The notes beneath the pieces are model-generated. The model was not told the origin of the DNA. It ran no database searches and worked only from the letters and a program-made list of their open reading frames with translations. The position numbers were made by a program, and so were the translations under genes. From the IMG/VR virus record IMGVR_UViG_3300036766_000889: DNA of 64,000 nt, one strand, 5' to 3'. Each line of letters begins with the position of its first letter. Position 1 is the first letter of the stretch. Below, piece by piece: positions 3,179-45,387 of this stretch. The stretch is from a virus.

Positions 3179-4735
3179 TTATCCTACACCTATCATTTTC
3201 TCAATCTTTTCGACCCAGGCATCTTTATTGCCACCGTCAATGAAACTTGAAATCACACCGAACACTGCATCACTGAAACCACCAACGTTCAAACGGTCTT
3301 CATCGGTGATTACTTGTGCAGTTTGATTCGGTGTTAGGTCAATACACACAAGCTTGGCTTTACGATTACGCCTCTTGAAAGACAACCACTCGGTCGATAA
3401 ACCGGTACCTCTACGATAACCCCTATCAGCCCAGCTTTCGTTGTCGGAGACATATATCACAAGGTCAGCATTTGCATTTTCCTCGTTAAGCAAAGCGAGT
3501 GGAGCAGAACAGGTGGTACCGCCGCCTCCCACACTTGCAATTTGGGTAGCTAGAGTCATCACACTATCACGAGGATTGATCTTCAAATCAACAACATCTG
3601 TTTCAAACGGGATAACTCTTGCGTTTGGATTCTTGCGCAAAATCGCGGCAGCAATCAACGCAGCTATGTCTATGCAACGAGCCTTAGATGTAGCACCTTG
3701 ACGTTGTCCAGTAATCGGGCTACTCATGCTACCGGAAACGTCTACACAGACTACAACGTTACAATTGTAGCTCGGCACGTTGTTCAGCGAATGCTCCATC
3801 GCGTCCTGTAACGCGTTGGTCAATTCGGCAGGAATGTCAGTTGCATTCAAATATGCCATAAGTAGCTGGTATGGAAATACCCGCGCCTTATTGATTTCAT
3901 CAACATTGCGCAAACGTGCAGCCAGTAGACTAACCATTTCTGGGTTGTCTAGCACACCGTGACGCTTGAACGTGTTGAGATTCATACGAGTCATCTGCCA
4001 ACCAGCATTCTTTGCAACGGTTGTCCAGCCAGCCGTATCAAGATTAAGAGAGTCTAGCATCTGAAATGGGACGTCCGGGATGATCTGACTACGGTCAACC
4101 TTATAATTCTCGTACGCACGTACGAGCTCCGGAAGGTGTTCGACAGTATACGGCTTACCAATTAGATAAGCATACAACGCCTTACGATCGTCGCTAACCG
4201 GGTTCGGGCGAACCATCTTAACCAGATCAGATAGAGACGGCTTCTTTCCGACGCTATCTCGGAAAAGTTGGTCCGATGACCGAGATGCAAACCATTCACG
4301 AAGCATGCGTCGAGGAGCAGAACCAAAGGACTTACGGGACGTCTTACCAGATCGGACAATTTGCGCGAAATTTCTCGCCATTTTGCCATTATCGATAACT
4401 CGTGGAAACACAAGCTTAGCTGCAAGTAAGCCTTCTGGACCACGAGAACATAAATGCGCAAGCAAAATCGCTGGCATATCCTTCATATGACCAAGTTGGC
4501 GTGCATATACAGCGACTTTAGCCACATAACTAACTTCACAGTTAGCTGCGTGCTTCAAAACTTCATCCAACTGGTCAGACGCAGCAGCATAGTACGTGTT
4601 ACCGAAGCAACCGGTAGACGCAATTTGAGCAAGAGCTTGCTTTGACGTAAGCGAGTATGCATTCCCACCGGCATGATTTACAGCCGTTGAAACATGAGCC
4701 TGAGGCAGAGTGTTAAATAGTTGTTGATTTGTCAT
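3179..4735 (-). CDS. rsr: Ro60/TROVE domain RNA-binding protein with vWA domain
   Basis: N-terminal VNHAGGNAY, KDMPA, MTRMNLNTF, ARVFPYQLL, and vWA MIDAS VCVDVSGSM...GGGT...VSDNESW. Confidence 0.95.
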   Translation of the reverse strand: MTNQQLFNTLPQAHVSTAVNHAGGNAYSLTSKQALAQIASTGCFGNTYYAAASDQLDEVLKHAANCEVSYVAKVAVYARQLGHMKDMPAILLAHLCSRGPEGLLAAKLVFPRVIDNGKMARNFAQIVRSGKTSRKSFGSAPRRMLREWFASRSSDQLFRDSVGKKPSLSDLVKMVRPNPVSDDRKALYAYLIGKPYTVEHLPELVRAYENYKVDRSQIIPDVPFQMLDSLNLDTAGWTTVAKNAGWQMTRMNLNTFKRHGVLDNPEMVSLLAARLRNVDEINKARVFPYQLLMAYLNATDIPAELTNALQDAMEHSLNNVPSYNCNVVVCVDVSGSMSSPITGQRQGATSKARCIDIAALIAAAILRKNPNARVIPFETDVVDLKINPRDSVMTLATQIASVGGGGTTCSAPLALLNEENANADLVIYVSDNESWADRGYRRGTGLSTEWLSFKRRNRKAKLVCIDLTPNQTAQVITDEDRLNVGGFSDAVFGVISSFIDGGNKDAWVEKIEKMIGVG

Positions 4736-8140: not shown

Positions 8141-8214
8141 TGGTGCCCGCGAGAGGATTTTCACCCCTATCAACTACTTAATTGGTAGACGTGCTAGAAT
8201 TGCACCACGCGGAC
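8141..8214 (-). tRNA. Atypical tRNA (loop CAATTAA, nominal anticodon ATT, A33)
   Basis: Cloverleaf with CCA end but non-canonical anticodon loop and T-loop TGAAAAT. Confidence 0.55.
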
Positions 8215-8576: not shown

Positions 8577-8592
8577 CGAACTATCCCCATTG

Positions 8593-8982
8593 TGGACTCG
8601 TGCGGAATCGAACCGCAGTCCTACAAGACTAACGAGCAGCTTCTACGTGTGTATCTGGAGTTCCGAGTGTTAATAAGCACCCCGGTGTCCCAGCCTCCAT
8701 GCTTTGGGGCGCGACAGGTTTCCCTGCTTTGCCTCCACCATCTGTCTGTAAAGTGAACTTCCCACAGCCGTCAGAACGCCGTGGCACAGGTTGCTTTTAA
8801 TCACGCCGCACGGAGTCGATGGCAACTACCTACTCCGTGCAACGGTTTCACGCGGCCTTTAGGACCGGTGCAACATATGCGTTGTCGTTCGCACTTACGT
8901 TGGTCTCTTGATAACCCGGCCTGAAGACCATCCGGGACACGCTGCTACTTATATCATCTCGCAGTCGAAACCTTTCGAGCCC
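8593..8982 (-). ncRNA. ssrA: tmRNA; tag peptide ANDNAYVAPVLKAA* (8848-8892)
   Basis: 5' GGGCTCGAAAGGTTTCGAC; acceptor GGGCTCG/CGAGTCC-A with G3.U70; 3' T-arm; resume context TAAGT GCG AAC GAC AAC; tag ends in AA. Confidence 0.95.
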
Positions 8983-10681: not shown

Positions 10682-10757
10682 TGGTAGGCCGTGAGGGGAT
10701 CGAACCCTCTCCTGTCGCTTATAAGGCGACTGCACTGAACCACTGTGCTAACGGCCC
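10682..10757 (-). tRNA. tRNA-Ile(TAT)
   Basis: GTCGC-CTTATAA-GCGAC; CCA end. Confidence 0.9.
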
Positions 10758-14659: not shown

Positions 14660-14728
14660 CAAGCCGTGACGGAATCGAACCGCCGCCTACTGGTTTGGAA
14701 TCAGTTCGGTCACCATGACCTACGGCTT
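14660..14728 (-). tRNA. tRNA-Trp(CCA)
   Basis: Loop TTCCAAA; G73; short D-arm. Confidence 0.85.
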
Positions 14729-15653
14729 ATTTCAATAAATTATTCGACAGAGCAGTTGTTTTAACAACTGGAGTGTTCTTACTAGCATGGTATCTAAGCA
14801 TCACTTTAGAATTTTTGCATTTCTTACAAATTAAATATGGTCTTCCAGTATCTGACTCTCCTGTTCTAACATAACAGTTTTCAATAGGAACAATACCATG
14901 CACTTTACAAAGTTTATTGGTAGGCGACCTATCCTGTTGAAATTTAGTTTTAGCTTTTTCTGATATTGTTTTTGCTATTTTTGCCTTGCAATCGTTACTA
15001 ATAGATCTTCCAACAGCGGCAAGTTTGATATTCATCCTTGCCTTATCCGAAAATTTTCGGCCTCGACTACGAGAAGCGTTTTTTTCTATGATTTCATGAG
15101 TAAGAATGGGTGGTTTGCAACGTCCATCTCGATGAGCTTTTTTGGCTGCTATAGATATTTTTCTTTTCACATCCGGGAGAGCTTGAATATGACGTGATAT
15201 TTCAATTCTCTTTGCTCGAGATTCTGATGTATTGAGTGCTGCTTTATTTGCAGCACGAGCTTGAGGTGTATGAAATCTAAGGACGACACCGTTTTGTTTT
15301 TCTCGATACTCTGGACGATCCCATGGATTTCGACGAATTGGATGCGGCGTATGAGATCCGCCCTTCATTAAGTTAAATCCAAACTTTGGATCTCGCGTAT
15401 TTTCTTGTTCGATTATCGCTTCTTCAGTCGCATTTGCACCTTCAAGGTCCCGACTCATCGCCAGAACTTCATGGGAGAAGGCATCCTTGCCATACTTACG
15501 AATTGCATTCGGAAAATACCAACGTCCGCCCTTGGAATTCTTAGCTTGGGAGCAATGTTGATTCCAACGATGCATCATTGTATGGCTAGTTAAGCCAATG
15601 TAACGACGACCCGATTCTATATGAGTGTGACAGTAAATGGTCCAGCGTTTCAT
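14727..15653 (-). CDS. GIY-YIG homing endonuclease
   Basis: TIYCHTHIESGRRYIGLT...GFNLMKGG; basic C-terminal repeats. Confidence 0.9.
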   Translation of the reverse strand: MKRWTIYCHTHIESGRRYIGLTSHTMMHRWNQHCSQAKNSKGGRWYFPNAIRKYGKDAFSHEVLAMSRDLEGANATEEAIIEQENTRDPKFGFNLMKGGSHTPHPIRRNPWDRPEYREKQNGVVLRFHTPQARAANKAALNTSESRAKRIEISRHIQALPDVKRKISIAAKKAHRDGRCKPPILTHEIIEKNASRSRGRKFSDKARMNIKLAAVGRSISNDCKAKIAKTISEKAKTKFQQDRSPTNKLCKVHGIVPIENCYVRTGESDTGRPYLICKKCKNSKVMLRYHASKNTPVVKTTALSNNLLK

Positions 15654-16713: not shown

Positions 16714-16787
16714 TGGGACCGGCGGGACTTGAACCCGCAACCGTTCGGTTAAAAGCCGACTGCTGCTTCCGATTGAGCTACGGCCCC
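16714..16787 (-). tRNA. tRNA-Lys(TTT)
   Basis: TCGG-CTTTTAA-CCGA. Confidence 0.92.
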
Positions 16788-16848
16788 AAGGAATACTTGA
16801 GTGCAGTAGCTAGGTTTGAGTTCCTTCATGATTACCGTGACTTTCTTG

Positions 16849-16934
16849 TGGTGGAGCCGTGCAGAGTCGAACTGCCTAGTCTAAGACCCGGCGTTTACAG
16901 CGCCAGTCGCCTTCCGAGGACGAACCCCGGCTCC
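16849..16934 (-). tRNA. tRNA-Tyr(GTA)
   Basis: TGGCG-CTGTAAA-CGCCG; V-arm; ACCA end. Confidence 0.88.
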
Positions 16935-17015
16935 GTAATAGATACGAGAGCAGGTGAGCGTCGATAACTTTCGTGCAGTGGTTTGTGTGAATTGAACATT
17001 GTTATTTCGAACCCT

Positions 17016-17056
17016 AAAAACATTGAGACCGCCTCTAGTTTCCTAGGGCGGTCTCA
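17016..17056 (-). terminator. Attenuator terminator hairpin ahead of the tRNA array
   Basis: TGAGACCGCC-CTAG-GAAA-CTAG-A-GGCGGTCTCA followed by ATGTTTTT. Confidence 0.75.
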
Positions 17057-17083
17057 CGCGAACGAGTGTTCTTGTGATTCCGC

Positions 17084-17227
17084 CTACGTCGTATCCTCAT
17101 GGCTAATGGGGCTGACGGCTGGGCGTTGATTCCCTCCGAGCCATATAAATGACGATGTCGCTTCCAAGCGTACGCCATTCAGCGTCGGCTGGACCGTCGT
17201 CATATAAGATTTTATGGATCTGGACAT
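17084..17227 (-). CDS. Putative 47-aa attenuator leader peptide
   Basis: MSRSIKSYMTTVQPTLNGVRLEATSSFIWLGGNQRPAVSPISHEDTT*; starts 10 nt after the -10 box; stop overlaps the antiterminator strand. Confidence 0.6.
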   Translation of the reverse strand: MSRSIKSYMTTVQPTLNGVRLEATSSFIWLGGNQRPAVSPISHEDTT

Positions 17228-17237
17228 CGAAGTATTT

Positions 17238-17266
17238 ACTTTAGCACAGGCTGTTTATGGCGTCAA
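17238..17266 (-). promoter_or_regulatory. sigma70-type promoter of the tRNA operon
   Basis: TTGACG-17 nt-TAAAGT with extended TG. Confidence 0.75.
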
Positions 17267-17387
17267 GGCCCTTGTTTATGATCTTACACTGAAAAGATTC
17301 GAATTTACGTCAGAAGGTAGTTCTTCGTCCTCACCCGCACATTTTTCACATATGATGAATACCGGAGCCATCCGACAATCGTGGAAA

Positions 17388-17636
17388 TCATGTATCGTGA
17401 ACTCTCTCAACTACCCCGTGTTTGCAGCCCCCATCTCCAAAAGGGTGGAGGCCCCAATACTTTATCTTGCATTCTGGACAAGTACGTTGTGAAGGACCAG
17501 TTGCTCCAGTTGCTCCAGTTAACCCGACAGCTTGATTCGGCCACATCGGACCAGTGCACCCGGCAGCCCCCGTTGCCCCGAAAGTATCAATCACTGATAC
17601 TTTCTTTTCGTTTTCAAGTGTCATGGACTCTCTCAA
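17388..17636 (-). CDS. Small protein with GAT/collagen-like repeat and C-terminal Cys/His motif
   Basis: GATGATGP; CPECKIKYWGLHP...CKHGVVERVHDT. Confidence 0.6.
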   Translation of the reverse strand: MRESMTLENEKKVSVIDTFGATGAAGCTGPMWPNQAVGLTGATGATGPSQRTCPECKIKYWGLHPFGDGGCKHGVVERVHDT

Positions 17637-17928
17637 TTATTCCGTGCTTACATTCAGTGTTTGGATGGAGACCCCAGTATGATAACTTGCACTCTGGATA
17701 GGTACGAATCAAGTTACCGCCTCCAATCGCTACATTATCGTTTCCAGTCATGAGCGAACCAAGACGTTCATACCCGACAGCAGTATTAACATTTGTGTTT
17801 TCGGAATTTACATTCGACAGTGCCAGTGCCAGTGCATTTAATGAGTTTATCTTACCTGCAGACTCATTTTGAGAAAGAATCTCATATTTATCTGCACCTA
17901 AAGAAAATAATTTCTTAATCCATGACAT
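17614..17928 (-). CDS. Small protein sharing the same C-terminal motif
   Basis: NTAVG/NVAIG repeat; PECKLSYWGLHP..CKHGIIERVHDT. Confidence 0.65.
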   Translation of the reverse strand: MSWIKKLFSLGADKYEILSQNESAGKINSLNALALALSNVNSENTNVNTAVGYERLGSLMTGNDNVAIGGGNLIRTYPECKLSYWGLHPNTECKHGIIERVHDT

Positions 17929-17933
17929 TTAAA

Positions 17934-20771
17934 TTAACCAGCGTTCGATAAACCAATTAGCATATCGTCCATCGTGAGGGACACGGTTTTAATTTTCTGA
18001 GAAGCTTGAATTAGAGCATCAGCACTAGTGTCCAAAAGTCCACTCTCGAGAGCACGCATGCGTTTTGATTGCCATAAGATTTTCCCAACCATCCGGTCGA
18101 AAATTGCGCCGTGACGACTCTTCAAATTCCCCATATAAAACTTTCCGTCTTTACGAAGAGTGTCGTTCAGGTATGTGTATGTGATGTAATCAGCGGCCTT
18201 CTCAATTTCATTTGCATACGCGATTGCTGAGAAGTCATATCGTCCATCTTCTTTATCTGCTTTTGCTTTTCCTTGACGATTGAGTTGAAAAAGGGCGAGT
18301 AGAGGGACTCCTCGTCCACGTGCAAAATTAGCGCATAGCATCTGGCCTTCTCGTACTGCGCTGTTTACACTAGTCACGTAATCGTTCGTTCGATATTTTG
18401 GCTTTACGAGAGCAAGATAGTCAATTACTATTCCGTCACATCCATATTTTGCATGAAACATTTCGGCCTTACGCCTAATATCTTCAGCCGTAACCTGTTC
18501 CGGTGGATGCCAAATGAAAGGTTTTCCTTTACAGTGAGCTTTAAAATCCTGAGCTACAATTTTGAGACGCTTGTATCCGAGTTCATCAAGCTCACCATCG
18601 CGGACCTTTTGAAAATCAAGCCCGACATAACACTGAGTGATCGGAACACCGGCTTTTTTGTCTTTTTCGTACCAATCTGTTACAAATTTTCCATGCGAAG
18701 AATGAATTACATATAGTTGATTTCGAAGATTCTTGTACTTCATTTCCAAAATGCAGTAGAAGATGTTCTTTCCGTATAAGAAACAGTTATTGTACGTGTA
18801 GTTCAGTGCCAACGTAGTATTATGGGTCACCATATCGTCAACAACAAATGAATGGTGTTCCGGAACCTCCATGTCATAAGTCATTTCTTCACCACAAGGA
18901 ATTATAGAAGCGACTCTTTCCCAGGAAAGGTCTCCATCTAGTGTTTTATCGAGAACTTGACTTTGTCCTCGGAATCTTTCCGCAACATGTGTTGCAACAG
19001 TTCCATGACATATAATTTGACTTACGTATCTTTTCTTTCCACTTGGCATAATGACTGATGTACACCCGGCCATTAGAGAAGATGGAATCGGTGAGTCATC
19101 TTCAATGGAAACTCTATTTATGACTGAATCAAGTTTCCAGTCTTTTCCAATTGGTCTCACATAATCACAGAAAACTCTCTTTGAAAATGCATCAACGACT
19201 CTCGTTACGTATACAACATACGGAGACCCACGATAGTCAAATTCGTAATCCGTAACCGTAGACCTCACCCCAAGTCTCAATAAGAGAGATTGGACCCCGA
19301 GACATAAATCTTCTGAAGTTGAATAATATTTAATGTCATTCCTTGAACTAACACCACACGGACGATCTTCTCGTATGTGGTCACCAACATGAATAGATCC
19401 GTCAGTAGACCAAAGTGCCCCGATAAGTAAGGCCGTCTGGTGTTCTGATAGACCCATCATTTCATCTGGAATTTTCTTTGTTGAAGCGACTTTCCCATAA
19501 ATTTTCAAATTATCAAGAAGTATCCTGACTGGAGAAATTTGATTGTGATGCGTACCGCCTGGACTTCTACTTACACGAACACCGGGAGCTCTATTCAGTG
19601 GGGTCTCTTCCTCAAAATTTGGTCTTAAAAAGTCTGCAGGACCTTCATAAAGACCCATTTCACGAAGACAGTCCATAAAATCATGTCTTATCTCCGTGTT
19701 TGATGCTGTCAGACGTATTTGACCAGATGAAACAGTTCCATCTCCAAGAAGATAACCAACAACTTTTATTTCGTCATCTGAAAATTTTGTCGACGGATTA
19801 TCAATTACAAATTTTTTTGGAACAGCTACCCAGTCACCTGGCCTAAGACCGGAGAGTTCCTTCCATCCGTCTATTGTTAGCCACCTGTGATTTCCAGTTG
19901 CCTTTGTTCTACGTCCAGATTCGAGTTTCAATTCGAAGACTGGACGTATACCATTTTCCACAATATGTGAAGCTTCAGCAGTTATGAGAGAGAATTTTTC
20001 TCCTTCTCTATATACGGAAGTAACCACTGGCATATCACCAGAGTCATAAACTTCCTTCATAGTTCGTCGTCTACCTGTTGAGTGGTCAAAGATAGACGAC
20101 GAACCCGCTAAACACTTTAATTCACCTGAGAATGCGCAATGAACCCAATATTCACCACGTCGATGACCTTTGCATATTGAGTCGACGGGTTCTAGACCAA
20201 ATAACAATCGATCTGAGTATATGTTGTTCTTAACTTGTTCTTCGTATTCAGATATTACTTCTTCAGCATCTTCTGATACGACACCCTCGAGCTTCTCACC
20301 GGCTTCAAGCCTGTGGAGATGGGCCATCATATCTGACATGTACGAAATGGCGTCCGGAACGCCTCGAAGTATCTTTTTTCCGTTGATCGGTTTATCTAAG
20401 TTTCTTCCGTGCTCAGCAATAGCCGAGGCATCACGACAGGCTAGTATGAATTCCCTTGTTAACTGACTTTCAAGTTGAGATTTTACGATCGAAAGGAAAT
20501 TTGTCCGAATGTACGGCTGAGCTTTTTTAACTTCTTCAAGTCGAGAAGTTACTTCAATTTTGTCTTTTTTCTCAAAGAACTCACGAACGAGAGAGAAATC
20601 CGGAGGAGCGGACATCTGACCATAAAAGTTCTTGAGGTACTCATGAATTTCATGATCCTCTTCATTCGGAAACCCTAAGTCATGTTCTTGAAGTCTAACC
20701 CAGTTTTGATAACAATCATCAGCTTCAGGTTGACCACCCACTTGTATGACACTTCTTAAGATTCTTTCCAA
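17934..20771 (-). CDS. DnaB-like replicative helicase containing an intein
   Basis: Walker A AFSGELK[intein]TT; IVIDYL; QLNR; IEKAAD; KSRHG. Confidence 0.9.
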   Translation of the reverse strand: MERILRSVIQVGGQPEADDCYQNWVRLQEHDLGFPNEEDHEIHEYLKNFYGQMSAPPDFSLVREFFEKKDKIEVTSRLEEVKKAQPYIRTNFLSIVKSQLESQLTREFILACRDASAIAEHGRNLDKPINGKKILRGVPDAISYMSDMMAHLHRLEAGEKLEGVVSEDAEEVISEYEEQVKNNIYSDRLLFGLEPVDSICKGHRRGEYWVHCAFSGELKCLAGSSSIFDHSTGRRRTMKEVYDSGDMPVVTSVYREGEKFSLITAEASHIVENGIRPVFELKLESGRRTKATGNHRWLTIDGWKELSGLRPGDWVAVPKKFVIDNPSTKFSDDEIKVVGYLLGDGTVSSGQIRLTASNTEIRHDFMDCLREMGLYEGPADFLRPNFEEETPLNRAPGVRVSRSPGGTHHNQISPVRILLDNLKIYGKVASTKKIPDEMMGLSEHQTALLIGALWSTDGSIHVGDHIREDRPCGVSSRNDIKYYSTSEDLCLGVQSLLLRLGVRSTVTDYEFDYRGSPYVVYVTRVVDAFSKRVFCDYVRPIGKDWKLDSVINRVSIEDDSPIPSSLMAGCTSVIMPSGKKRYVSQIICHGTVATHVAERFRGQSQVLDKTLDGDLSWERVASIIPCGEEMTYDMEVPEHHSFVVDDMVTHNTTLALNYTYNNCFLYGKNIFYCILEMKYKNLRNQLYVIHSSHGKFVTDWYEKDKKAGVPITQCYVGLDFQKVRDGELDELGYKRLKIVAQDFKAHCKGKPFIWHPPEQVTAEDIRRKAEMFHAKYGCDGIVIDYLALVKPKYRTNDYVTSVNSAVREGQMLCANFARGRGVPLLALFQLNRQGKAKADKEDGRYDFSAIAYANEIEKAADYITYTYLNDTLRKDGKFYMGNLKSRHGAIFDRMVGKILWQSKRMRALESGLLDTSADALIQASQKIKTVSLTMDDMLIGLSNAG
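18819..20114 (-). mobile_element. Intein with LAGLIDADG endonuclease (432 aa)
   Basis: Starts CLAG, block B ATGNH, GYLLGDG and GALWSTDG motifs, ends TYDMEV...VTHN/T. Confidence 0.93.
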
Positions 20772-20832: not shown

Positions 20833-21672
20833 TCAATCCCTGCTTGAAAACTTTTTACCACTACCAGACCCTCTCCCAAAGTTCTCAAATCCTTTAGGCA
20901 GATCCGGGTCCGGATCGGCAGAGCGTATGCGTCCTCTTTTCTTTTCGGGTGCGGGTCTAGTCGGTTCTTCTTGATTTTGATAACGTTTAGTCGGTTGGGA
21001 AGACTGAGACGCTATCGGCTCTGGAGCGAATGCCGATACTGCAGATTGAGAATCGGGAGAATGCGCGAGTGATATGCGCGGTATGACGAGCTCATTCATC
21101 GCACCTTTTAAAATACTCCAAACTGAATCCGAGTATGAAACGCTTCCCTGACCAAACGGGCGATCATAATATGAAACAACCCATGTTGGAAGATCTCGGT
21201 CTAGCCTGATACAAATAGATTCTTCAAGTATGGCTGCAGCAGCCTTATTCTTTGATACAAGCTCTCCTAACTGAATTACACACAAAGCAGGAGGACCCAT
21301 CACTTCTTCAAGCGTATTAATTACTTCTCCGGCGTCGTCGCCTTTAGACTTTCTGGAAGTGCTACCAACGTATACGTCGCGAAGTTCTCGATCCGATGTT
21401 ATACGGACAAATTTTGATGAATTTATCATCATTGCAGCTTTGACTAGTGCGTACAAGTCTTCTCTGGCCGCTTTGATGAAATATGATTTTTTGATACCAC
21501 CCCGCAAGATGGGTAATTTTAGATGTTCATGTGTGAGGTCAGCACATCTAACGTAAGCTGGCATCGCCGCTGCCACTCTTCGTAAAACGGCACACTCACA
21601 CTCTTTCGGCATCATCCCATCCTGGCGTTCAATAACACCAGTATCACCACAATGCTCGCATGTCTTTCTCAT
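20833..21672 (-). CDS. Possible helicase loader-like (DnaC/DnaI-type, degenerate) protein
   Basis: N-terminal CxxC...CxC; adjacent to helicase; no intact Walker A. Confidence 0.45.
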   Translation of the reverse strand: MRKTCEHCGDTGVIERQDGMMPKECECAVLRRVAAAMPAYVRCADLTHEHLKLPILRGGIKKSYFIKAAREDLYALVKAAMMINSSKFVRITSDRELRDVYVGSTSRKSKGDDAGEVINTLEEVMGPPALCVIQLGELVSKNKAAAAILEESICIRLDRDLPTWVVSYYDRPFGQGSVSYSDSVWSILKGAMNELVIPRISLAHSPDSQSAVSAFAPEPIASQSSQPTKRYQNQEEPTRPAPEKKRGRIRSADPDPDLPKGFENFGRGSGSGKKFSSRD

Positions 21673-42250: not shown

Positions 42251-43219
42251 TCAAATAATGCTGGAAAGATTGGAGTTATTTTTTCGACGTTTTTGGCGAC
42301 GAGCAGCATCATATACCCTTGCTCGTTCAAGTTTGCACTTATAACATCCACGTTCGCTAAATGTTCCGGGTTTATCACTCAGTTGATGCCCACGTTTACA
42401 GTGGGTAGGAAGACATTTTAAACATATACGGCTACGTCCATTTTTAGAAAACTTAATATTCCCTCCAGAAAATTCATGACCATTCACACAGTAAGTTCTA
42501 GAATTATATTCTTTCTTAGAAACCCTATCACTCCGGCACTGTCTACAGTACCTCCACCCATTATCATCTATTTGAGTATTTTTAGGAGTAAACTCATGAC
42601 CGTTTACACAGTGAGTTTTAGACGCACGTTTTTGATTTGCAGTCTTGAAACCCTTCATGAATTTTGAAGATATGCCCGGGTCTTGATGAAGAGCGCGAAT
42701 AATCCCAGACATATGGATACGAGATTCTACGCTAGAAAACTGAGATGATGTTGCAGCGGATAATTTCGCACGAACTTCCGGACGAGAAAGAACCTCTCGA
42801 GAAGCTGCAGATTTGGCCGCTTGGTTAACCGGGTTTTCATACCATGTTTTCATGGAAGCTGAGACCTTCTCACGAAATCCAGGACGATCCCAAGGGTTAC
42901 TCTTAGGGTGTGGAATATGCTGTCCACCCCTCATTAAGTTAAACCCAAACTTTGGGTCTCGCGTACCCTCTTGTTCTATTATTTGTTCTTCGGTTGCATT
43001 TGCACCTTCAAGATCCCAGCTCATTGCCAGAACTTCATGCGAAAATGCATCTTTCCCGTACTTGCGGATCGCGTTTGCAAAATGCCAACGTCCGTCCTTC
43101 GAGTGATTTGATTTAGCTACATGTTCAGACCAACGCTTCTCCATCGTTTGGCTTGTAAGCCCAATGTAGCGCCGTCCAGTTTCAACATGCGTATGACAAT
43201 AGATGGTGTAATACTTCAC
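42251..43219 (-). CDS. GIY-YIG homing endonuclease with C-terminal HCxNGH repeats
   Basis: TIYCHTHVETGRRYIGLT; GTG at 43219 aligns with paralog starts. Confidence 0.9.
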   Translation of the reverse strand: MKYYTIYCHTHVETGRRYIGLTSQTMEKRWSEHVAKSNHSKDGRWHFANAIRKYGKDAFSHEVLAMSWDLEGANATEEQIIEQEGTRDPKFGFNLMRGGQHIPHPKSNPWDRPGFREKVSASMKTWYENPVNQAAKSAASREVLSRPEVRAKLSAATSSQFSSVESRIHMSGIIRALHQDPGISSKFMKGFKTANQKRASKTHCVNGHEFTPKNTQIDDNGWRYCRQCRSDRVSKKEYNSRTYCVNGHEFSGGNIKFSKNGRSRICLKCLPTHCKRGHQLSDKPGTFSERGCYKCKLERARVYDAARRQKRRKNNSNLSSII

Positions 43220-43892
43220 CACCATTAAGAGTCATAAAAAAGCTAAATGACAAACGCCAGACCCAAGACAAGGTACTCGTCGGTGGCTTGTTGATCACGG
43301 GAAAGGTTAGGTAGTTTATTAACGTATCTAACCCGACTAAATTTACTGTGGGGTCATATGCGCCATTCGAGGGAAGGACGGGGCTGCTAACATTCATATT
43401 TGTTGATATGTCACCCCCGATGAGACCCATCTCTGTTATAGGCCCAACGGCTTCTGATTCGGAGAAGACAGTTGTGATATCAATAACGGCTGTCGGAATC
43501 CCGGACACGGCCCCGTTACTGTCGATAAATGAAGAGGAAGCGACGGCTTTCCGTCCTATCTCGCTATATAACGAACGTTGAGTGGTAGTAGCCGGTGGCG
43601 GATTCTGGAGATTCCATCCGACATCGCCTGAACCTACTGCCAAAGCATAAACCCCAAAGTTAGGTTCTGAGACGTGCGGAGAAGCAGAGTTACGCATGAG
43701 ACGAGCAATGAGAATACTCGCGTCCATGGTTACCACATTCTTGAGGTGACCGTTCGTCTCCTCACCCGTTCGAACATCTCTAAGAGTCCAAAAGACTTCG
43801 CCGCGAAATCCACGGTATGAATCCGTGGCTTTCCCTTCAGCCGAAAGGCGTGGTGATTTATCCACTGTTTTTTGAAATTTATCGATTGGCAT
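43182..43892 (-). CDS. Tail/baseplate structural protein
   Basis: NVV...AVGSG...EAVGPITEMGL...FPVINK pattern typical of tail-fibre/baseplate N-domains. Confidence 0.7.
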   Translation of the reverse strand: MPIDKFQKTVDKSPRLSAEGKATDSYRGFRGEVFWTLRDVRTGEETNGHLKNVVTMDASILIARLMRNSASPHVSEPNFGVYALAVGSGDVGWNLQNPPPATTTQRSLYSEIGRKAVASSSFIDSNGAVSGIPTAVIDITTVFSESEAVGPITEMGLIGGDISTNMNVSSPVLPSNGAYDPTVNLVGLDTLINYLTFPVINKPPTSTLSWVWRLSFSFFMTLNGGEVLHHLLSYAC

Positions 43893-44547: not shown

Positions 44548-45387
44548 TCACCTGATTAGGCTCTTACCATTAGCGCAAATACTAACGGGATGATGCATCA
44601 TTTGTTTTTTGGCAGTTTTCGAAATTTTTTGCTTTAAAAAGAGATATCTTGTTTGAGCTTTTGAAAGCTTTGCACGATACTCAGGACTGTACTCACGTAG
44701 TTTATTAGACTCAGTAACAAGAGCCATTTTTGCTATGACTTCCGGTCTAGAATGAACTTCTTTAGATATTATTGATTTCTTAGCTCTAAATTCTGGCGTA
44801 TTATACACAGTTTTCTGAGACGCAATGCACTTTGCTCTAAATACTGGGTCAAGCCATAATTTTTTTGATCGTAAAGATGCTTTTTCTTTAACCTCATGTC
44901 GTGACTGAACTTCTTTTGAAGAGACTGATCTTTTTAACTTAGATTCCGGTGTATTGAGTCCTGCCTTCGCAGCAGCTACATTTTTAGCTCGAATAACCGG
45001 GTCTTGCCAGCGCGTTTTTGACGCCAGCGCCGCCTTGGCACGATACTCAGGGTTATTCCAAGGGTTTTTTATTGGATGCGGAACGTGCTTTCCACCAGGT
45101 GCTAAATTAAAACCGTATTTCGGATCACGAGTCTTCCATCGCTTGATCAGGCATTTTTCTGCTAAATTCGCATCATCGAGTGATTCAAAGACTCGAATCA
45201 CTCGATGTTCAAAAGCTTCAGGACTATATAGACGGATTGCATTCGGGAAATGCCATCGTCCGCCCTTGGAATTCTTGGCATGAGAGACATGTGTCTTCCA
45301 TCGGGCAAGCATTGTTTGACTAGTCAACCCAATATAACGACGTCCAGATTCAGCATGAGTGTGACAGTAAACGGTCCAACGTTTCAT
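44548..45387 (-). CDS. GIY-YIG homing endonuclease
   Basis: TVYCHTHAESGRRYIGLT...GFNLAPGG; basic helical repeats. Confidence 0.9.
   Translation of the reverse strand: MKRWTVYCHTHAESGRRYIGLTSQTMLARWKTHVSHAKNSKGGRWHFPNAIRLYSPEAFEHRVIRVFESLDDANLAEKCLIKRWKTRDPKYGFNLAPGGKHVPHPIKNPWNNPEYRAKAALASKTRWQDPVIRAKNVAAAKAGLNTPESKLKRSVSSKEVQSRHEVKEKASLRSKKLWLDPVFRAKCIASQKTVYNTPEFRAKKSIISKEVHSRPEVIAKMALVTESNKLREYSPEYRAKLSKAQTRYLFLKQKISKTAKKQMMHHPVSICANGKSLIR

Follow-up and report, generated by a model that had tools for sequence, protein, structure and literature searches.

The window, the whole 64,000-nt stretch of DNA analysed here (IMG/VR record IMGVR_UViG_3300036766_000889), is part of a jumbo phage, as judged from the DnaB with an intein, the SNF2 helicase and the homing endonucleases that it encodes. 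A gene at 20833-21672 has relatives on viral contigs of up to 427 kb. On the minus strand, ARAGORN finds 33 tRNA genes and a tmRNA (8592-8982) between 16934 and 4780, and further tRNAs of the array were recovered using Rfam and a relaxed scan. The array thus holds at least 33 tRNA genes and the tmRNA, interspersed with homing endonucleases. It starts with tRNA-Tyr(GUA) (16849-16934) and closes with a minus-strand Ro60/TROVE gene (3179-4735), identified by protein search, whose closest named relatives are found in Myxococcota. An atypical tRNA with a GTC (Asp) anticodon (13724-13650, minus strand), missed by ARAGORN and Rfam at their defaults, matches the place of tRNA-Asp in a homologous phage locus, L001; because it is counted, the array covers all 20 amino acids. 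Other elements of the window include a tRNA-Ile with a UAU anticodon, rare in bacteria (10682-10757, minus strand), and a tRNA-like element with an odd ATT anticodon loop (8144-8214, minus strand), which matches Rfam and is not called by default ARAGORN. The latter may be read as a pseudo-tRNA or as a tRNA mimic, and is of interest since Ro60 is encoded in the same region. Three similar genes are of the GIY-YIG type by their N-termini (14727-15653, 42251-43225 and 44548-45387), and a hairpin at 15661-15639 overlaps the start of the first of them.

The array is preceded by a leader, all elements of which lie on the minus strand. A sequence scan recovers a sigma70-type -35 hexamer, TTGACG (17261-17266), separated by a 17-nt spacer from TAAAGT (17243-17238), which together with a preceding TG forms an extended -10 element (17238-17246). 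The usual spacing places the predicted start site at ~17232-17230, leaving a 3-5 nt leader ahead of an open reading frame. With a 9/12 match, the promoter is not significant on its own, since the region contains 20 such sites against 25 expected from shuffles; its position is, however, conserved in the homologues described below. The -35 hexamer is TTGACG at the same place in L001 and L136, and TTGACA, TTGCGT or TTGCCG across L140, L147, L142, L133 and L137. An AGTGTAA motif is located just upstream of the promoter (17290-17284), and a TGTAA core occurs near several homologous leaders and inside the window array (9411, 8425 and 7904). It is possibly a second (phage) promoter or operator.

The upstream open reading frame (uORF; 17084-17227), supported by the ORF list and by homologue comparison, has 47 codons and a UAG stop, and its ATG is not preceded by a Shine-Dalgarno (SD) sequence. 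It uses 19 amino acids and 36 codon types, including one AGA and two ATA codons. Cys is missing although the array has a tRNA-Cys, and five of the 32 array anticodons have no codon that they could read in the uORF. Asp is encoded once, three codons before the stop, and a ribosome stalled there may already cover the antiterminator strand. An earlier sequence-only reading had located the promoter, the uORF, the complementarity at the stop and the hairpin, and each was found in its place on the minus strand. The same reading had cautioned that the codon breadth exceeds chance only modestly; for the window copy alone this is right, the probability under random sequence being ~0.14 for 19 amino acids and ~0.11 for 36 codon types.

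Folding and homologue comparison define two alternative structures around the uORF stop. The antiterminator 5' strand, with a GGCGG core, begins at the last base of the stop codon (17074-17084); it can pair with a shared strand with a CCGCC core (17047-17057), enclosing a small hairpin (17060-17071) that varies in sequence among homologues and is predicted in nearly all of them. The antiterminator pairing (17086-17074 with 17057-17047) has a folding energy of -21.1 kcal/mol (z -3.7), reached by none of 200 shuffles. The shared strand alternatively serves the terminator hairpin (17016-17059; core stem 17057-17024, GAAA loop) by pairing with its 3' arm, at -27.1 kcal/mol (z -5.2; 0/200 shuffles). 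The tail of the terminator consists of ATG and five T (17023-17016), and tRNA-Tyr starts at 16934. With its strong hairpin and short, gapped run of five U, the terminator was not called by the scan. Terminators at the ends of host genes (L360, L362 and L363) have the same hairpin and gapped U tail without the stop-linked strand, which eases the worry over the imperfect U tract.

The same layout before the first tRNA was found in eight phage leaders: the window and seven others. The homologues were reached by different routes: L001 via a neighbouring protein, L133, L136 and L137 via a downstream DNA pattern, and the distant phages G002, G005 and G009 by alignment of a marker protein (37-47% identity) combined with a tRNA scan, where the leader was not used. 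All seven display a promoter, uORF, stop, G-rich strand, small hairpin, GC-rich hairpin, gapped U tail, tRNA-Tyr and tRNA-Lys. The closest, L136, encodes a uORF peptide identical to that of the window with one synonymous change, behind a nearly identical promoter; its terminator differs by an A-U to G-C pair change and a rebuilt loop, and a gene is inserted between the terminator and tRNA-Tyr (L136:870-1300). No such leader precedes the arrays of 7-8 tRNAs in G001 and G008, where the weak hits of the covariance model introduced below correspond to ordinary terminators or to noise. Scanning viral contigs with single proteins or exact patterns gave nothing or chance matches, and among the matches listed in the terminator pattern scan the only leader recovered was that of G009. 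In cultured phages (INPHARED), only tRNA matches and one weak protein match were found. The array of G009 (L144) seems, as judged by eye, to contain an EF-Tu-like gene just before tRNA-Pro(UGG).

A covariance model running from the final 22 nt of the uORF to the end of the U tail, with the uORF body outside, matches Myxococcota genomes chosen for their Ro60, as well as 34 of 101 genomes of Polyangiaceae, the family of assembly G016. Several matches lie megabases into one contig and are therefore chromosomal. The element is thus not confined to phages. We examined 31 bacterial copies, having left out four hits (a near duplicate, a long gene and two with other geometry); model hits L387, L390 and L395 lie at the ends of longer genes. 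tRNAs occur within 1.4 kb of 28 of these copies, often Tyr, Lys, Gln and Asn as in the phages. The leader, tRNAs and Ro60 of L175 and L237 follow the order of the window, and tRNA-Tyr stands directly behind the tail in L353, L370 and L384. Phylum-wide searches, scoring 26 candidates per genome under a strict pattern, gave almost nothing beyond Polyangiaceae, which does not amount to absence, and a tRNA-Tyr pattern found none in bacterial genomes. The bacterial copies make Polyangia the suggested hosts of the uncultured phages, which are 240-430 kb in size. In some host arrays a second leader-attenuator is found in tandem 0.3-1.6 kb from the first (L368:139-244, L378:888-980, L386:2400-2482, L237:3610-3698 and L397).

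Both structures are conserved across the homologues. Across 41 aligned hits, the nine base pairs of the terminator are kept in 98.9% of cells, in an alignment that had been fitted to the terminator structure, against at most 59% in slid controls. Four of the nine pairs show covariation, with 15 two-sided changes, a count reached by none of 500 shuffles. The check proposed in the sequence-only reading was to look upstream of tRNA arrays in related phages for this layout accompanied by compensatory changes, and it is present in the seven other phage leaders and about 30 bacterial copies. The antiterminator fold begins at the stop in 38 of 38 copies. Its strand pairs better with its own partner than with swapped ones (-19.2 vs -16.1 kcal/mol; own better in 34/36), and shuffles reach only -10.0 kcal/mol against the -19.2 kcal/mol obtained with its own terminator arm. 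The GGCGG/CCGCC core hardly varies, apart from mismatches in a few copies, and hence contributes little covariation; L001 and L140 each show a change of one base in the antiterminator strand together with a change of its partner, the terminator keeping a G-U pair there. Folded without a ribosome, nascent RNA that extends to the terminator loop is predicted to adopt mainly the antiterminator in 33 of 36 copies. The 1:2 hairpin of the trp type is not predicted in the phage copies (P(1:2) ~0), so that untranslated RNA should read through.

The uORF frame and its stop position are conserved in all 38 copies analysed. Six of the seven distinct phage uORFs (L001, L133, L137, L140, L142 and L147) encode all 20 amino acids within 46-55 codons, with an internal Met. 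The individual probabilities are 0.017-0.06 under random sequence and 0.013-0.037 under phage coding sequence, and their product over five lineages is ~1e-8 if these are taken as independent; the number of codon types is likewise above the null. Because the start codons of phage uORFs were picked by eye from the promoter position, the count was repeated on the last 44 codons, which do not depend on the start, giving 19.4 amino-acid types against 16.0 under the null. Most of the peptides are unalignable, the exceptions being L133 and L137, which are clearly related, and the weak scores of the window with L001 and of L001 with L142. The positions of W, C, M, H, Y and F relative to the stop differ among phage uORFs. 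A functional leader peptide was considered and rejected: neither Pfam nor PHROG gave a match to the uORF peptide, and most pairs cannot be aligned.

Since the uORF body is absent from the covariance model, the bacterial copies are a fair test of the frame. In all 31, the frame that terminates at the uORF stop stays open over 51 codons or more, where an opening of 44 codons is expected with a probability of 0.29 for each. The bacterial frames contain 17.6 amino-acid types per 44 codons, compared to 15.1 under the null and 15.4 in host genes (Wilcoxon P 2e-7, a value which, like the others, overstates independence because the copies are related); L365, one of the host copies used, has low amino-acid diversity. 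The significance of the broad codon use therefore comes from the homologues and not from the window copy, and the broad-codon leader of the sequence-only reading, weak in the window, is strong across the family.

The layout, alternative pairing, open frame, amino-acid coverage and position before tRNA arrays recovered by sequence comparison support a ribosome-controlled transcription attenuator that tests the decoding of almost every amino acid and gates the tRNA array, a reading we hold with high confidence. RNA polymerase would start at the sigma70 promoter and a ribosome would load on the nearly leaderless uORF, with transcription and translation assumed to be coupled in these hosts. If all codons are decoded at normal speed, the ribosome would reach the UAG stop, where it would probably linger with the aid of the SD-like motif and cover the GGCGG strand; CCGCC would then pair with the 3' arm of the terminator, and transcription would stop near 17016 despite the weak U tail. 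A delay in roughly the first 42 codons, or the failure of a ribosome to load, would allow GGCGG:CCGCC to form first, and the polymerase would enter the tRNA genes. Such delay could be caused by lack of a charged tRNA, by tRNA cleavage or by ribosome poisoning. The uORF peptide would thus act as a codon checklist and not as a functional protein, and production of the extra tRNAs is probably confined to times of slow decoding by the ribosomes. Read-through may extend far enough to place the whole 14-kb tRNA/tmRNA/Ro60 region under this control.

The end of the uORF carries an SD-like motif at positions -13 to -9 from the stop (17095-17099; TGAGG in the window, consensus GGAGG), found by homologue comparison. 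In 36 of 36 copies the anti-SD is predicted to pair more strongly with it than with the uORF body, and the stop codon is UAG in 33 of 36, the remaining three having UAA. The motif and UAG are partly built into the RNA model for the host copies; the motif is also present in the phage seeds found without the RNA model. An SD sequence at -13 to -9 with the stop codon in the A site approximates the usual spacing of SD to the P-site codon, and the motif may therefore hold the ribosome over the antiterminator strand. These features would also fit a ribosome-controlled attenuator that senses release-factor or recycling activity at the SD-anchored UAG, with amino-acid breadth secondary, and the tmRNA in the array agrees with such a role. 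It would leave unexplained why the peptides of six phage leaders contain all 20 amino acids although they cannot be aligned, why the host copies are enriched in amino-acid types, and why three copies end in UAA; we regard it as improbable, while the best of the alternatives.

Somewhat less probable still is a switch independent of translation, driven by a protein or RNA such as a phage antiterminator, Ro60 or an uncharged tRNA, or a mark for nuclease cutting in the tRNA precursor. The weak U tail would suit it, and the near-invariant stem could be a binding site. Rfam, however, has no match in the leader region (16935-17950), T-box included, even at E values up to 5, and in the 5' region neither sequence nor fold is conserved; what persists in 38 of 38 copies is an open frame with its stop fixed at the antiterminator base. 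On the lack of an Rfam match and of sequence conservation in the 5' part, a structured non-coding RNA (6S, SRP, Y RNA or T-box) in place of the uORF was also rejected. Least probable of all is an ordinary small gene with an ordinary terminator and chance complementarity, the tRNAs being transcribed from other promoters such as a phage late promoter: similar hairpins do end ordinary host genes, the TGTAA motif may be another promoter and the L133 and L137 peptides can be aligned, but the antiterminator strand tracks its own partner, distant peptides are unalignable yet keep 20 amino acids, a scan finds no promoter-like site between the terminator and the first tRNA, and in three host copies tRNA-Tyr comes immediately behind the tail.

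Two putative accessory mini-ORFs were observed on the minus strand at the head of the window array. One, of 34 codons with one Tyr codon (16895-16999), runs into tRNA-Tyr and has its stop in the anticodon loop of that tRNA, with the same frame and stop in L001, L133 and L147; the other, of 26 codons with two Lys codons (16749-16829), reads into tRNA-Lys(UUU). Mini-ORFs with cognate codons reading into tRNA-Tyr or tRNA-Lys(UUU) are also found in L140, L142, L377 and L379, and Lys-rich versions recur in phages and hosts. The idea of a cognate mini-ORF before every tRNA was rejected: the signal is mild, with 73 observed against 52.5 under label permutation (P 0.014, computed on related sequences), and comes mostly from Tyr and Lys.

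The leaders trpL, hisL, pheL and the multivalent ilv/thr leaders contain runs of one to three cognate codons and control biosynthesis genes, and in trp/his-type leaders a 1:2 hairpin terminates the untranslated RNA. As in these systems, the stop of the uORF adjoins mutually exclusive antiterminator and terminator structures, and the position of the ribosome would pick the fold. Unlike them, our leaders have no cluster of cognate codons, rare residues occurring about once each among 19-20 types, no 1:2 protector hairpin is predicted, and tRNA genes follow in place of amino-acid biosynthesis or synthetase genes. Of the trp/his-type geometry seen in the sequence-only reading, the attenuator is supported, while the trp/his model gives way to that of whiB7/wblC. 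In Actinobacteria, the whiB7/wblC uORF, which in M. smegmatis has 19 of 20 amino acids without Cys (10.1101/2023.06.02.543512 = PMC10274678), directs terminator formation when translated efficiently and antiterminator formation when translated slowly, and its composition decides which shortages induce (PMC10274678). The window-type uORF is similarly near-complete in amino acids, and the whiB7 uORF is the closer model for how the leader would work. The actinobacterial uORF serves a transcription factor with positive feedback, whereas here the leader precedes tRNA arrays in jumbo phages and in Polyangiaceae, which belong to another phylum. The element would work like an attenuator of a known kind, yet the features compared place it outside the trp/his and whiB7 families.

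A long tRNA array with a homing endonuclease is also known from Anabaena PCC 7120, where the cryptic trn operon (L-array) is normally silent and is induced by translational stress under the repressor TrcR (PMC8421152, PMC10272220). Control there is by a repressor, unlike the proposed attenuator leader of our arrays, and the words attenuation and leader are absent from PMC8421152. A literature search covering few subscription journals found no paper on attenuation of tRNA arrays. Phage tRNAs have been described as standing in for tRNAs that host nucleases cut (PMC10264068, PMC11555353); the abstracts of these articles deal with the tRNAs themselves and not with a sensor switching them on. Such replacement would give a phage a reason to make tRNAs on demand.

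Anti-phage tRNA cleavage is accordingly one plausible trigger. As the same element is found in host chromosomes, the attenuator can be read as a general switch for translation stress common to phages and hosts, and such stress is no less likely than anti-phage anticodon nucleases to be the trigger. A fuller scheme, which we offer tentatively and think somewhat less likely to be right than wrong, is that a family of pan-amino-acid attenuators of Polyangiaceae chromosomes and jumbo phages switches on reserve tRNAs, tmRNA and Ro60 when any charged tRNA runs short, cuts by defence nucleases included, with the SD-like motif parking the ribosome on the stop to keep the switch off and the Tyr and Lys mini-ORFs adding a second, tRNA-specific control. 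Whether long tRNA arrays in phages and bacteria serve codon matching or the replacement of damaged tRNAs is an old question. A leader with all amino acids that ends transcription unless decoding slows would make the arrays an on-demand reserve with feedback from its own product. The question thereby becomes testable codon by codon with a 250-nt reporter, for which Cys-free and Cys-containing leaders offer a natural control, and the copies on multi-megabase bacterial contigs indicate a host system that could be studied without phage isolation.

In Acidobacteria, chiefly Pyrinomonadaceae, the tRNA arrays linked to Ro60 carry a leader unrelated to this one, in which a uORF of ~43-89 codons with 18-20 amino acids is followed right after its stop by a hairpin and by a terminator with a good U tract (L179:5030-5550 and L185:4840-5360; also L162, L164, L173, L188, L194, L196, L222 and L236). 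This leader has four strands, the first of which would be covered by a ribosome standing at the stop; its logic may therefore differ.
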